A stretch of 64,000 nucleotides of DNA from Escherichia phage Killian. Position 1 is the first letter of the stretch. Every line of letters starts with the position of its first letter. The translations under genes and the position numbers were made by a program. The notes beneath the pieces were generated by a model, which ran no database searches, had not been told where the DNA came from, and saw nothing but the letters and a program-made list of their open reading frames with translations. The DNA lies in sequence record OQ446694.1; one strand, given 5' to 3'. Shown here one piece after another: positions 39,160 to 56,648 of the stretch.

Positions 39160-39163
39160 CAAT

Positions 39164-39193
39164 GGGGACCTTTCGGTCCCCATGTTTTTATTT
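39164..39193 (+). terminator. rho-independent terminator after gene 54
   Basis: ggggacc-tttc-ggtcccc then T-rich tract. Confidence 0.75.
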
Positions 39194-39478
39194 ACGGAAT
39201 GAAATAAAAGCAGCAACTGAAGCAACTAAACTGTCTTCAATATAAACTTCAATTTTTACCGGAGCTTCTGATTCAAATTTACCTGTTACTACACCCTGGA
39301 AAATGCTTTCAGTCTGTTCTGGCTTTGAAAAATTTTCAGAAGGAAAAATTCCGAACTTTTTATCTGTTCCAAAAATTTTGATAAATTCATCATAAACTGC
39401 TTCATTAAAAGCGTTATCAGCAGGAATAACGCCTTCAACTACAAGTTCTTGACCTAAAAAGCGTAAAGAAGATTTCAT
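39188..39478 (-). CDS. hypothetical protein downstream of the alt genes (T4 alt.-x-like)
   Basis: 96-aa ORF with GAGG RBS, directly downstream of an early-type promoter. Confidence 0.65.
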   Translation of the reverse strand: MKSSLRFLGQELVVEGVIPADNAFNEAVYDEFIKIFGTDKKFGIFPSENFSKPEQTESIFQGVVTGKFESEAPVKIEVYIEDSLVASVAAFISFRK

Positions 39479-39509
39479 TTTGTGTTCCTCATGTTATGTC
39501 AGTAAGATT

Positions 39510-39539
39510 ATTATAACACAGCACGAGGGACTTGTAAAC
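39510..39539 (-). promoter_or_regulatory. T4 early-type promoter (GTTTAC -35, TATAAT -10)
   Basis: on - strand GTTTAC, 18 nt, TATAAT; second copy of this cassette at 55028-55057. Confidence 0.6.
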
Positions 39540-41596
39540 TACATCTTGAACTTTTTAGACATTCCGTTGATGTTAACCAAAGAAGCCAAGATTTGAGAAA
39601 CTTCGTTTTCCTCTTCTTTTGATTCTTCTACAAGGAATTGATTAAATCCAGCCATTGGACGAACTTCACCAGTTTCCATCAGATGATCGCCATCATATAC
39701 CGATTCTTCTAATTGTTCAGAAGGAGGAACGATTGTACCTTCGATTAAATACTTGTTATAAGCAGTTTCTTTCATCATGTACGTGCTCACTTTATTAATC
39801 TTCAGCAAAATTCCACGTGGTAAAATAACTTCAGCTTCTGACGGAAATCCTGATAAATGACCCGGAACGATAACTTTGATTCGCTCAGCTCCTTTTATTA
39901 CCATACCTACGCTAGTTTCAGCATCTTCATTCGCATAAGCAGAGTGACTGCCCATATGCATCAAATCTTCTGCGTCAACAGAACCTTCTCCTTCACCAGA
40001 AAATACTGCACTGGAATCATCTAGAGCCATATAGTTTTTACCATACTCACCGAAGATATTTGGTTTAAGCGATGTGGATACGAAGTTCTTAAAATAGAAC
40101 ATTTTATTTTCAATATTATGACGTAAAGTTTTAAAGGTAACTTCTTGGCCACGGTAAAGCGTAGTTCCTGGAGGAAGAACTGATCCTTTGGCAAAAGCAG
40201 AATCCATCGTCTCGATGTGTTTAATAGCTCGTTCCATATATTCTTCACGAGTAGAATCCGGTTTACCTAAAAGGAACGAGTTCATTTCAACATATGAATC
40301 CGCGCAATAATCTTCAATTACATCAGACTCAGCCTGAGTTAATCCTTTTGGGGGTACTTCAGTACTTGCATATTCATACGCTTGAGAAGCAGACTCATTA
40401 ATCAATTTATAAATGCCATTCATGACAAATTGAACAATAGCTACCTTTTCGTCTGGCGTGGCTTTAGAACCTTTAACTAAATCATTGATAATTTTCTTAA
40501 TAACATCAAAGCTATTAGAAATATTAATGTCAGCGAGATCGCTCAAAATTTTATCGGTTTTATAATCAAAGAATTCTTTATTCTTTAAATATTCTTGAGA
40601 ACCTTGATATGTTATATCGCTCTGCAGTCTGATAGACGGATCACGTAAACGTGCATGGGCCAATGCAATATGATTTCGGAAGCTTTCTAGTTCATAATCG
40701 TTAGATTTAAAACGAGAAGCACTTCTCATACCACCGATAGCTCCTTTGCTGAAGTTTGAACCAATCTGAATAACGCCAGAGTTCATTGGTCCTTCTGCTT
40801 TATATACCGGAACTTTAGATTCAAACTCTTGATATTTCTTGGCAGCGAAGCTATCACCCTGTAGCGAAGCATCGACAGTAGAATATTGAGCTTGTGCTGC
40901 TAATCGACGACTAATTTTAGTTTTCTGAATAACAGCTTGATCCGTGCGCTTATCATTTTCTAAAGCAATAGAAGCAGCAACAGCAACAGCTTTAGGAACA
41001 GCATTACCTGTTTTAACATCTACATAAACATCACCAACCTTTGATTCAACTTTTGTGAATAACTCAGTTGAAATAGGAGGTACACCTGGAATGTCTTCTA
41101 AATTGGCATTTTTACGGTAAACCATAATATATGCATACTTTTTATCATAGTCCCAGATTTCCTTTAAAAGAACATATCGACCTGCTCCTTTAGTACGTAC
41201 TAAACGGTCAGCAATAACTTGCATTTGACGAGCAGCGCCATTTGTTTTACTTTTTAGTACGCGGAATAGGCATGCGTCAATTTTATACTGTTTCATTGTT
41301 TGAAGAGCAGTATCAAAAACCGCATTAATGACACCAATTGGATTTCCACCCAAGTTTTTAAGTTTAACTAATGATAGTTTCTCATTGACACCTATCATTA
41401 CGATATGCATCATTTTATCGCCTGGCTTAACGTTTTTATTTGTATCACCACCGGAGGTGTATGTACAAAATCTAAATCCAGGAAGCACGCTTTCTTCACC
41501 GGCTTGAATAGCAAAAATTTGAGGTATTTTATGCTTAGGATTTAAGTTAACAACCGGCGCCGAAGCGCCGTCAAATAATTCTGTAATAAGTTCCAT
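39539..41596 (-). CDS. Alt-family ADP-ribosyltransferase, copy 1
   Basis: 685 aa; R-S-ExE ART motifs (YRG, FVSTSL, SEAEVILPRG); paralog of the adjacent ORF. Confidence 0.85.
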   Translation of the reverse strand: MELITELFDGASAPVVNLNPKHKIPQIFAIQAGEESVLPGFRFCTYTSGGDTNKNVKPGDKMMHIVMIGVNEKLSLVKLKNLGGNPIGVINAVFDTALQTMKQYKIDACLFRVLKSKTNGAARQMQVIADRLVRTKGAGRYVLLKEIWDYDKKYAYIMVYRKNANLEDIPGVPPISTELFTKVESKVGDVYVDVKTGNAVPKAVAVAASIALENDKRTDQAVIQKTKISRRLAAQAQYSTVDASLQGDSFAAKKYQEFESKVPVYKAEGPMNSGVIQIGSNFSKGAIGGMRSASRFKSNDYELESFRNHIALAHARLRDPSIRLQSDITYQGSQEYLKNKEFFDYKTDKILSDLADINISNSFDVIKKIINDLVKGSKATPDEKVAIVQFVMNGIYKLINESASQAYEYASTEVPPKGLTQAESDVIEDYCADSYVEMNSFLLGKPDSTREEYMERAIKHIETMDSAFAKGSVLPPGTTLYRGQEVTFKTLRHNIENKMFYFKNFVSTSLKPNIFGEYGKNYMALDDSSAVFSGEGEGSVDAEDLMHMGSHSAYANEDAETSVGMVIKGAERIKVIVPGHLSGFPSEAEVILPRGILLKINKVSTYMMKETAYNKYLIEGTIVPPSEQLEESVYDGDHLMETGEVRPMAGFNQFLVEESKEEENEVSQILASLVNINGMSKKFKM

Positions 41597-41599
41597 GAT

Positions 41600-43696
41600 T
41601 TATCCTTGAATGAACTTGTAAGGCATGTTTGCAATATCTATGCAAGATGCAATAATTCCAAGAGATGATTCTACTTTTTGTTTAACATTTGATGAAACAA
41701 ATGATGCAAAGTCAACTCTGTCTTCTATTTCAATATCACCTGCCATTGCAACTACTTCACCAGTTTCCATTAGACGGTCACCGTCATAAATTACTGATTC
41801 AGTGAGTTCTTCCGTAGTCATAACTTCAGCTTGAATGAGTTTTGTATTATTAGATGTTGTTCCGTCATTATTAGAAGCATCAGTTATTTTATTAACTTTG
41901 ACCATCAATCCGCGTGGTAGAATAACTTCAGCTTCTGTTGCTATTCCGAGGCTTCCTGGATATACAACATTAACTTTATGAGCTCCATCAATTGCCCATC
42001 CTATTTGAACTTTAACGTATTCGGGATTTTCTTTATACGCTCTTATTTCGTTTGAATTAATAGTTATTCCTTCTTCATTTTTATCAACTGTCAATTCATT
42101 ACGAGCTTCTGGTTCTAAAAGACCAATACCAGCATGTGTAATTCCAAAACGTCCAAAAATGATAGGAGTTAAAGAAGTAGATACAAAATTTCTGAAATAG
42201 AACACTTTATTTTTAACTAGTGCTTCGTATATAGGAGCAGTCATGCTTTGAGCACGATAAACTGTAATGCCTTCTGGTATACGGTCACCATTTTCAAAGG
42301 CTGAATCTAAATTATTTATCGCAGATTCAATTTCTTTTTCACTCATTACCTCATATCGTTCTGGATTGTAGCGACCTAAAAGAAGATTATTGATGTCAGT
42401 ATATCCTGAACCACAATACTCTCTAATGCCGCGCTTTTGTGATGGAGTATATTTAGAACCATCACGAGCAATAGTAATATCAATCATTGGACCTGCACCA
42501 ATTCCAGAAAAACTATAAATCATTCTTTTGAGGAATTTAGTTTTTGCTGCGTTCCAGGAATTTTTAGTTATTTCTTCCCAGACTTCATCTGGCTGTCCTT
42601 TACGGGTTTTATTATGTTTATCAAGCCAATTATCTTTATATTCTTCAAATAATTGATTAACAGCTGCTGCGTATTTCTCTAAACATTTTATTGAAGTAGT
42701 TGGTTCATTTTTAATCGCATTAAGAATTACATCTTTAATTTTTTCAGAAACTTCATTAACCTCACTTTTTGAAAAGAATTTATAGTCATAATGAAGTTCA
42801 TCTGCAGTTCCTTCAGCAATAATTTTTGCTGCCTTAGTTTTAGAAGCTAATGAATTAATTCCAAGCTTCATTTCTTCCGCTTCGGGAATTAAAGGAGCGG
42901 TAGCAGGTTTATTGAAATTAGCTGCGGTAGATTCATACTTCTGGAATAATTCACTTTCAAATCTAGAAGATTCTAATGACTGACTTTGCGCAATTGCTCT
43001 ACGGGAAATTTTAACTTTAACGATTACAGCTTGGTCAGAACGTTTATCATTTTCTTGTGCAATAGATGCTGCAATTGCCTCATTTTTAGTTACTTGAGCT
43101 CCAGTATCTTTATTGATATAAACATCACCGACTTTCGATTCAACTTTAGTAAAGAGCTCGGTACTAATTTCTGGAACTCCTGGAATGTCTTCTAATGATA
43201 CATTTTTGCGATGTATAAGAATATATGCGTACTTTTTATCGTAATCCCAGAGTTCCTTAAGAAGGACGTATCTGCCACCTGAACGACTGCGGATAAGTCT
43301 ATCAGCAATAAGTTGAATTTGTCGAGCTTGACCAGCAGTTTTAGACTTAAGAATACGGAGCATGCAGGCATCAATTTTATACTGACGCATCGTTTGCATT
43401 GCAACTGTAAAAACTGAATTGATATAATTAATTGGGCTTGGACCGAGACCTTTTAATTTAGCAATTGAACCTTTAGCAGTTAATGTAAAAGGAACAATAT
43501 GCATCATTTTATCGCCCATCTTTAAATCGCGATTAGTATCACCTCCAGATGTATAGGTACATAAACGAAAGCCTGGTTGTTCAATTGCGTCATCAACGTG
43601 AACTGAAAAAATTTGCGGTATTTTCTTCTTTGGATTTAAGTTTGTAATCGGAAGAGTAGTATCTTCGTCAAATAATTCTGTAATGAGTTCCATCAT
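41600..43696 (-). CDS. alt: Alt-family ADP-ribosyltransferase, copy 2
   Basis: 698 aa; same N-terminus MELITELFD and ART motifs; late promoter immediately upstream. Confidence 0.8.
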   Translation of the reverse strand: MMELITELFDEDTTLPITNLNPKKKIPQIFSVHVDDAIEQPGFRLCTYTSGGDTNRDLKMGDKMMHIVPFTLTAKGSIAKLKGLGPSPINYINSVFTVAMQTMRQYKIDACMLRILKSKTAGQARQIQLIADRLIRSRSGGRYVLLKELWDYDKKYAYILIHRKNVSLEDIPGVPEISTELFTKVESKVGDVYINKDTGAQVTKNEAIAASIAQENDKRSDQAVIVKVKISRRAIAQSQSLESSRFESELFQKYESTAANFNKPATAPLIPEAEEMKLGINSLASKTKAAKIIAEGTADELHYDYKFFSKSEVNEVSEKIKDVILNAIKNEPTTSIKCLEKYAAAVNQLFEEYKDNWLDKHNKTRKGQPDEVWEEITKNSWNAAKTKFLKRMIYSFSGIGAGPMIDITIARDGSKYTPSQKRGIREYCGSGYTDINNLLLGRYNPERYEVMSEKEIESAINNLDSAFENGDRIPEGITVYRAQSMTAPIYEALVKNKVFYFRNFVSTSLTPIIFGRFGITHAGIGLLEPEARNELTVDKNEEGITINSNEIRAYKENPEYVKVQIGWAIDGAHKVNVVYPGSLGIATEAEVILPRGLMVKVNKITDASNNDGTTSNNTKLIQAEVMTTEELTESVIYDGDRLMETGEVVAMAGDIEIEDRVDFASFVSSNVKQKVESSLGIIASCIDIANMPYKFIQG

Positions 43697-48259: not shown

Positions 48260-48345
48260 TTTATTCTCCTTTGTTTGTGTAAGATAATACTATCACAAAG
48301 GAACCATACTGTAAACAACTTTGTGCAGTCTTTGGAAAATAAAAA

Positions 48346-51673: not shown

Positions 51674-51735
51674 TTCAATTTCCTCATTTGTTTTGGTAGA
51701 GCTATAATATCACAACTCTACCATAAAGTAAACTA

Positions 51736-54152: not shown

Positions 54153-54502
54153 TTAGAAAGGTCCTGGATGTCTTCTGCGAACTTATTGAAGGAGTTGTTG
54201 ATTTGTTTTTCAACCAATCCTGGCTTATGAGCCACCACATCCGCCTTCTTTGCGTCTTTGCGCAGTTTTTCATTTTCACGCTCAATAGCAGCAATTGCCT
54301 CACGATTTTTATTATTCATCGCATCAATATAATTATACTGAATTCGCAAATTATTTAATGCTAAAGCGTTTTCATTGGCCGTTTTTGTAATTTCAGTAAC
54401 CGATGTTTCTAATCTTTCTACCTTATTTTTTAAAATAATAGATGTTCCGCCAAATGCTATTACAAGTAATAGCAATCCAGCTGTAAAATTACTTACATGC
54501 AT
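54149..54502 (-). CDS. pseT.3: inner-membrane spanin (i-spanin, Rz-like)
   Basis: 117 aa; N-terminal TM helix then coiled coil; overlaps o-spanin gene start. Confidence 0.65.
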   Translation of the reverse strand: MHVSNFTAGLLLLVIAFGGTSIILKNKVERLETSVTEITKTANENALALNNLRIQYNYIDAMNNKNREAIAAIERENEKLRKDAKKADVVAHKPGLVEKQINNSFNKFAEDIQDLSK

Positions 54503-54999
54503 AAAGTTTTAATAACCTCTACAATATCGTCTTGAGAAAGACCGTTAATTAAAATGTGATGTTCAGCCGGAGATTTAGAAATTTTAAAGCATGCCTCAAC
54601 ATCTTCTGCCATATCTGACGCGTTACGATTTGGATTACTAATTCCAAGACGATGTTTTCCAGTTAAAGGATTAACGATGATATAGCATTTACAGTTGTTA
54701 ATATGAACATTAGGTTGAGTCTGATTAATGAATACATCACAATCATATTTCGCAAGCTGATTTTCTAAAAAGACTTTCATCTCCTCAACTGCATCAGGAA
54801 GCATATCACGGGCTTGCTCAAGACGACGATTTCGATATTCTTTAATGGTCGTTTTCCGCTTGACTTGCTTAGCTAAATCTTTCTTAAGATCGGTGATATA
54901 TCCAACTCGACGATTTCCTTTAAATACAGAAATCCCATCTGTAGTATCACCGTATGCTTCAACGACCATTTCAGTAGTAATAAGCTGTAAATCCATCAT
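54493..54999 (-). CDS. alc: Alc, inhibitor of host transcription
   Basis: 168-aa ORF (167 aa from second Met), position between spanins and rnlA; early promoter directly upstream. Confidence 0.75.
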   Translation of the reverse strand: MMDLQLITTEMVVEAYGDTTDGISVFKGNRRVGYITDLKKDLAKQVKRKTTIKEYRNRRLEQARDMLPDAVEEMKVFLENQLAKYDCDVFINQTQPNVHINNCKCYIIVNPLTGKHRLGISNPNRNASDMAEDVEACFKISKSPAEHHILINGLSQDDIVEVIKTLCM

Positions 55000-55027
55000 A
55001 AAGTCCTCATGTTATGTCAGTAAGTCT

Positions 55028-55057
55028 ACTGTAACACAACATGAGGGACTTGTAAAC
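55028..55057 (-). promoter_or_regulatory. T4 early-type promoter upstream of alc
   Basis: on - strand GTTTAC, 18 nt, TACAGT; shares -35 block and 20-nt leader with 39510-39539. Confidence 0.55.
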
Positions 55058-55060
55058 AGC

Positions 55061-56648
<1,588 letters not shown>

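Follow-up and report, generated by a model that had tools for sequence, protein, structure and literature searches.

We identified a pair of near-identical regulatory cassettes in a 64,000-nucleotide (64-kb) stretch of DNA from Escherichia phage Killian (OQ446694.1), hereafter the window, which belongs to Tequatrovirus and is a close relative of T4 (best match phage vB_EcoM_P8, 99.1%). Each cassette comprises an early promoter and a transcribed leader that carries the Shine-Dalgarno sequence of the next gene; copy A precedes alt.-3 and copy B precedes alc. The explanation that we favor, and hold to be modestly probable, is that the cassette is an early promoter whose spacer masks the ribosome site in read-through RNA, that it was copied from alc to alt.-3 in Tequatrovirus, and that the two copies are still exchanging sequence.

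A duplicated cassette upstream of two unrelated genes

The two cassettes lie on the same strand.

39539..39486, minus strand: cassette copy A, 54 nt, GTTTACAAGTCCCTCGTGCTGTGTTATAATAATCTTACTGACATAACATGAGGA; covariance model score 78.6 bits
55057..55004, minus strand: cassette copy B, 54 nt, GTTTACAAGTCCCTCATGTTGTGTTACAGTAGACTTACTGACATAACATGAGGA; covariance model score 85.9 bits

The copies are identical at 48 of 54 positions, with mismatches at cassette positions 16, 19, 27, 29, 32, and 33. An earlier note, made from the letters of the window, had described the duplicated segments as 39487-39539 and 55005-55057; the duplication is borne out, and the repeat is one base longer at 54 nt, owing to a common A after GAGG. 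The 15-nt block of the −35 region that the note had pointed out occurs exactly twice in the window. The identical 20-nt leader likewise has exactly two matches, even with three mismatches allowed, and none in shuffled sequence. The note had proposed a motif search of the rest of the genome; within the window, both motifs are confined to the two cassettes.

We also built a covariance model from 22 distinct versions of the cassette and ran it on the window. The rest of the window scored no more than 14 bits, besides the reverse-strand images of the palindromic cassettes themselves (30.1 and 18.3 bits). Ordinary T4 early promoters share the consensus only: the other early-promoter cassettes in the window have 23–38 of 55 positions in common with the pair or with each other, whereas copies A and B share 48 of 55, spacer and leader included. 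The pair is thus far above chance.

Promoter anatomy

Both cassettes contain the elements of a T4 early promoter, as follows.

39533..39538, minus strand: copy A −35 hexamer TTTACA, part of the T4-type GTTTACA; invariant in 47 copies
39510..39515, minus strand: copy A −10 hexamer TATAAT, with TGn ahead (TG at 39518..39517); 17-bp spacer; 11/12 consensus matches
39503, minus strand: copy A predicted transcription start, an A seven bases after the −10, placed by the sigma-70 rule of thumb
55051..55056, minus strand: copy B −35 hexamer TTTACA
55028..55033, minus strand: copy B −10 hexamer TACAGT, with TGn ahead; 17-bp spacer; 9/12 consensus matches
55021, minus strand: copy B predicted transcription start

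The −35 and −10 elements are equally spaced in the two copies, as the earlier note had claimed: its 18 nt, counted from GTTTAC, correspond in sigma-70 terms to TTTACA followed by 17 bp. Reviews describe T4 early promoters as carrying GTTTAC at −35, TGn, and a strong −10, and as lying directly upstream of early genes. Both copies show GTTTAC(A/T), the 17-bp spacer, TGn, and a TAnnnT −10. The DNA upstream of the −35 is coding sequence of the preceding gene (...AAAAGTTCAAGATGTA and ...GAAGGATACTAAGCT). With regard to an A-rich UP-like element, copy A has a short A-run near −50; at −40 to −44, a clear A-tract is missing from both copies. We regard the identification of the cassettes as strong sigma-70-type T4 early promoters as close to certain.

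The predicted start corresponds to cassette position 37. In terms of the hairpin described below, this is the second base of the 3′ arm, past the loop.

The promoter spacer is predicted to mask the Shine-Dalgarno sequence

The earlier note had reported that the leader can pair with the promoter region in an imperfect inverted repeat of about 13 bp. Such a repeat exists; its length had been underestimated, as we find 18–19 pairs interrupted by one 2-nt bulge, with G-U pairs making up much of the helix. The arms are arranged as follows.

39509..39529, minus strand: copy A hairpin 5′ arm, cassette positions 11–31, formed by promoter spacer and −10; predicted to be absent from RNA of its own promoter
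39486..39504, minus strand: copy A hairpin 3′ arm, positions 36–54, formed by the transcribed leader; Shine-Dalgarno GAGG at 39490..39487
55027..55051, minus strand: copy B hairpin 5′ arm, positions 7–31; reaches further out than in copy A (AAGUCC/GGACUU pairing)
55001..55022, minus strand: copy B hairpin 3′ arm, positions 36–57, formed by the leader; Shine-Dalgarno GAGG at 55008..55005

Folding of the RNA, a check that the earlier note had suggested, gave significant hairpins at both sites, with predicted minimum free energies of −18.7 kcal/mol for copy A (z −3.75) and −29.0 kcal/mol for copy B (z −5.66). The T4 copies fold at −23.0 and −26.2 kcal/mol, and z across the window and T4 ranges from −3.75 to −5.66. 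The duplex of spacer and leader has a predicted energy of −16.5 to −21.2 kcal/mol, compared to about −7 kcal/mol when the spacer is shuffled.

To evaluate the consequence for ribosome access, we computed the free energy required to open the stretch from the Shine-Dalgarno sequence to the AUG, both in RNA that starts at position 37 and in RNA that starts 120 nt upstream. The predicted cost is 1.9–3.2 kcal/mol in the own-promoter RNA versus 11.3–12.2 kcal/mol in read-through RNA, a penalty of about 8–10 kcal/mol at both sites, and the predicted probability that GAGG is unpaired in the read-through RNA is 0.00. The own-promoter RNA would lack the 5′ arm because the predicted start lies beyond the loop. 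The predicted masking function is well supported by these computations together with the comparison of lineages presented below.

We propose the following mechanism. Unmodified host RNA polymerase uses T4-type early promoters in the first minutes of infection. As DNA, the cassette would serve as such a promoter and start RNA about 7 nt after the −10, so that the 5′ end of the transcript would be the leader, ACUGACAUAACAUGAGGA; in this RNA the Shine-Dalgarno sequence would be free, and alc and alt.-3 would be translated. As RNA, the spacer and −10 would be transcribed only by polymerase arriving from upstream, that is, from rnlA and beyond for alc and on the late alt message for alt.-3. Because the spacer and −10 are complementary to the leader, this read-through RNA would fold into the 18–19 bp hairpin and bury the Shine-Dalgarno sequence. 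In this way, alc and alt.-3 would depend on their own early promoter for translation, whatever the level of transcription from upstream.

A similar arrangement is predicted for an early-promoter cassette of unrelated sequence at 48316..48262 (minus strand), whose spacer (TTCCTTTG) pairs with its own Shine-Dalgarno sequence (CAAAGGAG). Here the opening cost is 0.3 kcal/mol in own-promoter RNA versus 7.5 kcal/mol in read-through RNA. The same calculation indicated no masking of the Shine-Dalgarno sequence for the cassettes at 51733 and 47924. The device would thus recur in the window without being universal. The cassettes at 51733..51679 and 48316..48262 (minus strand) also form a second, looser pair of related promoters, with 38 of 55 positions in common (GTTTAC..TATGGT....TTGTGATA.TAT).

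We additionally considered a five-codon mini open reading frame in the leader (AUG AGG .. UGA; 39494..39474 and 55012..54995, minus strand) and set it aside as probably due to chance; it has no Shine-Dalgarno sequence of its own. At both sites, and in Winklervirus alc too, its stop codon and the real start codon overlap in the sequence AUGA; the frame is missing from Karamvirus, Jiaodavirus, and Dhakavirus.

Spacer–leader pairing in other T4-like lineages

The rnlA–alc spacers of Karamvirus, Jiaodavirus, Dhakavirus, and Winklervirus follow the same design with a different sequence. We aligned cassettes from five genera manually by structure. This alignment replaced one made with MAFFT, on which RNAalifold had returned a spurious 5-pair helix, the sequences being out of register. 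In the structural alignment, double-sided compensatory changes are present at five pairs. For example, CCTC/GAGG becomes CTCC/GGAG where the Shine-Dalgarno sequence changes, and TTC/GAA, TTG/CAA, and CAG/CTG interchange. In addition, the two arms have gained or lost 3 bp in concert.

We further examined T4-like contigs from IMG/VR. Pairing of the 17-nt spacer with the leader is seen in 22 of the 24 distinct regions upstream of alc. These duplexes end 1–7 nt before the AUG and have energies of −15 to −24 kcal/mol, compared to −6 to −8 kcal/mol when the spacer is shuffled; no more than 0.4% of the shuffles equal the energy of the real duplex. Given this frequency and the compensatory changes across genera, the comparison indicates that spacer–leader pairing at alc is old and is kept by selection. 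The earlier note had taken the identical leaders as a hint of shared post-transcriptional control. The predicted masking in read-through RNA and the compensatory changes at alc speak in favor of such control and fall short of proving it.

At alt.-3, genera other than Tequatrovirus also have an early promoter ahead of the gene, beginning at the stop codon of alt (TAGTTTACA). The hairpin is contained within the spacer and the Shine-Dalgarno sequence is free in Mosigvirus, Marfavirus, Karamvirus, and an unclassified coliphage, and a Kanagawavirus example has neither a spacer hairpin nor pairing of the Shine-Dalgarno sequence. Since the alt.-3 cassettes of other genera differ in design, the Tequatrovirus alt.-3 cassette is of the alc type, and it most likely arose by copying. 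The direction suggested by this comparison is from alc, whose cassette would be ancient in T4-like phages, to the site before alt.-3 in the Tequatrovirus lineage. Conversely, the alc cassette of Mosigvirus resembles the alt.-3 type and has its best match in the alt.-3 cassette of its own genome (0.78). This hints at a transfer from alt.-3 to alc, in an identity matrix that is too noisy across genera (baseline 0.6–0.8) to say more.

In Gaprivervirus EAWsc9, an extra open reading frame of 77 aa (annotated with a PRC domain) is located between rnlA and alc, exactly where other genera carry the cassette. It is preceded by a terminator-like GGGG..CCCC hairpin, and alc is left with a 13-nt spacer and a free Shine-Dalgarno sequence.

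Variation and proposed exchange within Tequatrovirus

A 63-nt query around copy B retrieved 997 places in 499 phage records, and nearly every Tequatrovirus genome among them has two copies at the same two sites. In T4, the cassettes occupy these sites and are identical to each other at 53 of 54 positions. One 54-nt match (92.6%) lies at the very end of a 32-kb record, GenBank MG010123.1 (Staphylococcus phage SAJK-IND; 31824-31877), and is likely to reflect T4-like contamination or misassembly.

Within Tequatrovirus we assembled 47 copies from 26 genomes or contigs, representing 22 distinct sequences; leader scans of metagenomes and IMG/VR contributed only about 10 contigs. The −35 does not vary at all (diversity 0), and the leader hardly varies (0–0.0097, the upper value at the copy A site; the leader is invariant in the 14 alc-site copies used for the diversity estimate). 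Diversity rises to 0.057–0.060 in the spacer arm and to 0.088–0.095 in the −10 and loop. The downstream genes show 0.08 at third codon positions, compared to 0.005 at the first two.

The common variants are mostly compatible with the helix. In a count of pairs, 93.5% of cells are paired and four pairs vary on a single side. The common variants G16A, T27C, C11T, and C15T keep or improve pairing, and others fall in the loop. G29A is the sole common change that breaks a pair, and it creates a perfect TATAAT −10; the remaining pair-breaking changes are singletons.

The alt.-3 and alc sites have one and the same consensus and show no fixed differences, even though positions 8–36 evolve near the silent rate (0.057–0.095). 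The alt.-3 site has 11 variants and the alc site 10, and six of them are common to both; this overlap has a probability between 4e-6 and 0.07, according to how large a set of possible variants is assumed. Multi-base haplotypes are shared as well. The combination C11T+C15T+G16A is found at the alt.-3 site in T6 and one IMG/VR contig and at the alc site in ph0021, while seven genomes have G29A+G32A at the alt.-3 site and PP01 has it at both. There is moderate support in these polymorphisms for the view that the two sites act as one allele pool, a pattern expected from occasional conversion in a freely recombining population. The 54-bp copies may thus have been exchanging sequence, by homologous recombination or gene conversion, since the duplication. 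The earlier note had mentioned a recombination hotspot as a second possibility; the lack of fixed differences, the six shared polymorphisms, and the haplotypes across the 26 genomes lend weight to recombination and do not prove it.

Genomic setting and expression

The genes next to the cassettes are listed below.

39188..39478, minus strand: alt.-3, 96 aa, Pfam DUF5498; the gene served by copy A
39539..41596, minus strand: second alt paralog, an ADP-ribosyltransferase of 685 aa, from which transcripts would run on into copy A
54493..54999, minus strand: alc, 168 aa, PF17527; the gene served by copy B
55061..56221, minus strand: rnlA (RNA ligase 1, gene 63), from which transcripts would run on into copy B

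The gene assignments of the earlier note were right: its 96-aa reading frame is T4 alt.-3 (DUF5498), and the other gene is alc (PF17527). Copy A occupies the intergenic space between the alt paralog and alt.-3, and the G of the paralog's TAG stop is cassette position 1. Copy B occupies the space between rnlA, whose stop codon is at 55063..55061, and alc. The copies are separated by 15.5 kb of mostly conserved genes, among them DNA ligase and gene 31, which are essential.

The gene just upstream of alt.-3 in the window is a second full-length alt paralog. The paralogs form a tandem, 39539-41596 (685 aa) and 41600-43696 (698 aa), both assigned to ADPrib_exo_Tox. T4 has a single alt and the remnants alt.-1 and alt.-2, and its record describes an old partial duplication. 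Both alt copies are present in every non-T4 Tequatrovirus record that we fetched with intact annotation of the region. Downstream of alt.-3, positions 39162-39183 form a perfect 9-bp, G+C-rich palindrome (ATGGGGACC TTTC GGTCCCCAT) between the convergent genes 54 (plus strand) and alt.-3 (minus strand). With T-rich tails on both strands, it resembles a bidirectional terminator, and a terminator is annotated at the equivalent place in related phages.

In a transcriptome and proteome time course of T4 (PMC9697503), the supplement lists alt.-3 and alc with early RNA and early protein and rnlA with early RNA and late protein, and its main text treats alt as a late gene. Expression of alt.-3 and alc is independent of the gene just upstream, as would be expected from an early promoter of their own and a block on read-through translation. 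In LR215723.1 (fPS-90), the alc copy is annotated as a predicted early promoter. Together with the strong consensus match, this annotation and the early expression in T4 uphold the central claim of the earlier note, a duplicated early promoter and leader ahead of two unrelated genes.

Relationship to known T4 elements

The cassettes resemble two classes of element described in T4-like phages. PeSL cassettes, reported by Arbiol et al. 2010 (PMC2839356) and Comeau et al. 2014 (PMC4122927), were proposed to be terminators and recombination sites; they have also been described for the PST/T4 pair, with the consensus TTTACW-N17-TAYWAT. Like PeSLs, both cassettes combine an intergenic early promoter, a stem-loop, and the Shine-Dalgarno sequence and start of the next gene. 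The motif is also repeated in the genome, as two near-identical copies and looser relatives with a stem-loop over the −10 at 51733, 48316, and 47924 (minus strand). The stem-loop of a PeSL may sit between or over the −35 and −10, and the element is a proposed site of homologous exchange.

There are also differences. The legend for the PST/T4 PeSLs places the stem-loop just upstream of the promoter, whereas here it spans the spacer, −10, and leader. PeSLs were interpreted as terminators, whereas the constant feature of the present cassettes is the predicted masking of the Shine-Dalgarno sequence. Our copies flank 15.5 kb of mostly conserved genes rather than a single variable reading frame, and excision of a mini-circle between them would probably be lethal, so that only conversion is seen. 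Near the cassettes, the alt paralog is full length in the window versus remnants in T4, and Gaprivervirus has its extra reading frame; no breakpoint has been traced to a cassette. Related elements are known from the internal-protein loci of T-even phages (Repoila et al. 1994, as cited in PMC2839356), where T4-type early promoters with AT-rich stem-loops, repeated ahead of different genes, were proposed to promote shuffling. As far as that citation describes them, they flank highly variable genes, while the genes flanking our pair are conserved.

The second class comprises the T4 genes e, soc, 49, and I-TevI, in which long transcripts bury the Shine-Dalgarno sequence or AUG, and a promoter within the DNA of the 5′ strand yields short transcripts that lack this strand and are translated (PMC3014915, section 29). 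The likeness is close: in the cassettes, too, the Shine-Dalgarno sequence is predicted to be paired in RNA started upstream, and the promoter lies within the DNA of the 5′ strand. Unlike in these cases, the promoter spacer itself is the masking strand here. Moreover, e, soc, 49, and I-TevI have late promoters (TATAAATA) and are translated late, whereas the cassettes carry an early sigma-70-type promoter and would be the mirror image, with early translation. The TATAAATA late promoter is absent from both cassettes, and alc and alt.-3 are not among the masking cases of PMC3014915.

Our search of the literature, which did not cover the older T4 work and the 2003 genome review, found no account of the alc/alt.-3 pair or of Shine-Dalgarno masking at alc. 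The cassette strings returned only chance matches to primers, and a paper on DksA names neither alc nor alt.-3. The cassettes have the structural features of both PeSLs and ribosome-site-masking hairpins, and are a new example of known T4 devices rather than a new kind of element.

Alternative explanations

Several observations weigh against the explanation that we favor. The literature that we read yielded no genome-wide map of T4 start sites and no measurements of transcription start, RNA structure, or translation for either cassette site. Copy A has the weakest hairpin, with two pair-breaking changes (T19C and G29A). The 5′ arm as a whole is nearly as variable as silent sites, and support for pairing within the genus comes from stability and from common variants that are mostly pair-compatible. 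No double-sided covariation is found within Tequatrovirus, a result that is uninformative at such divergence. With regard to exchange, sharing a genome does not make the two copies more similar: A and B differ on average at 2.43 positions within a genome and at 2.34 when an alt.-3 copy is compared with an alc copy from another genome, and copies taken from the same site differ at 2.30 and 2.11. These distances give no sign of recent conversion within a genome, PP01 excepted, and recurrent mutation at a few tolerant positions could yield some of the shared single-site polymorphisms.

It is unlikely, in our view, that the hairpin is mainly a terminator, attenuator, or 3′-end stabilizer that insulates alc and alt.-3, as in the PeSL model, with the Shine-Dalgarno sequence included incidentally. 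Three facts recommend this idea: the stem-loop of a phi1 PeSL lowered downstream lacZ as strongly as the rrnB T1 terminator, OL960581.1 (SA20RB) annotates the alt.-3 copy as a rho-independent terminator, and each hairpin directly follows the stop codon of the upstream gene. However, neither stem is followed by a T-run (the tails are AACACAAAAUG and UAUGAUGG), and a terminator scan that flags the palindrome at 39162-39183 is silent at both, so that we rejected an intrinsic terminator here. Pairing with a stretch that includes the Shine-Dalgarno sequence and stops 1–7 nt short of the AUG, the constant feature at alc across lineages, would be needless for a terminator, and the hairpins of other early-promoter cassettes lie elsewhere. 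We give a smaller chance to the leader being an operator, bound by a trans-acting protein or small RNA that co-regulates alc and alt.-3, with the complementarity of the spacer secondary. The near-invariance of the leader and its identity before two unrelated genes would suit an operator, and T4 translational repressors that bind initiation regions exist (PMC3014915). Nevertheless, the leader differs between genera while its complementarity to the spacer stays, and a leader that changes with its pairing kept points to an intramolecular helix rather than a fixed binding site. The leader also lacks GGAG, the RegB cleavage site, and no Rfam family matches anywhere in the window.

Comparably improbable is that the copies are alike only through purifying selection after a single old duplication, with no exchange and the hairpin as a by-product. 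This would agree with the strong constraint on the −35 and leader and with the within-genome distances given above; if few variants are tolerated, the six shared polymorphisms also reach only P = 0.07. It sits poorly with the near-silent rate at positions 8–36 in the absence of any fixed site difference and with the linked two- and three-base haplotypes at both sites, and the compensatory evolution at alc in other genera points to selected pairing. We consider it very improbable that the element acts chiefly as DNA, either as a cruciform or as a hotspot of recombination or replication initiation, with the promoter secondary. Folded as DNA, copy B is indeed stable (−15.1 kcal/mol, z −5.8), PeSLs have been proposed as recombination sites, and homology of 50 bp or less is said to be sufficient for recombination in T4. 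For copy A, however, the DNA hairpin does not surpass shuffled sequence (−4.5 kcal/mol, z 0), and the RNA fold of this copy is significant because of the G-U pairs; together with common variants that keep G-U, A-U, or G-C pairs, this points to RNA. Recombination between the direct repeats would also delete 15.5 kb, including DNA ligase and gene 31.

An early promoter with a masking spacer, copied and still exchanging, remains our preferred explanation. A more specific form of it, which we offer tentatively, is that the 17-bp spacer of an early promoter serves as an anti-Shine-Dalgarno strand, limits translation to promoter-proximal transcripts, and has been kept at alc by compensatory evolution in many T4-like lineages, and that the whole cassette makes up a portable module copied to alt.-3 in the Tequatrovirus ancestor, possibly in reverse in Mosigvirus, whose copies are still converting across 15 kb.

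Implications

The general picture of T4 biology is unchanged by these findings. The pair occurs across the genus, T4 itself included, and fits the published concepts of PeSLs and of hairpins that sequester ribosome sites. For annotation, it is a case in which one record calls an element a promoter while a second record calls it a terminator. Alc shuts off host transcription, and its synthesis must be correctly timed. Should masking operate as predicted, it would help to account for the strictly early alc and alt.-3 proteins beside upstream genes with late products, and the late-promoter cases e, soc, 49, and I-TevI would gain a counterpart with an early promoter. The promoter spacer, usually treated as unconstrained, can hold a second code. 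The pair may also serve as a natural example of regulatory cassettes that are copied and homogenized between distant T4-like loci, which bears on the shuffling model put forward for PeSLs.

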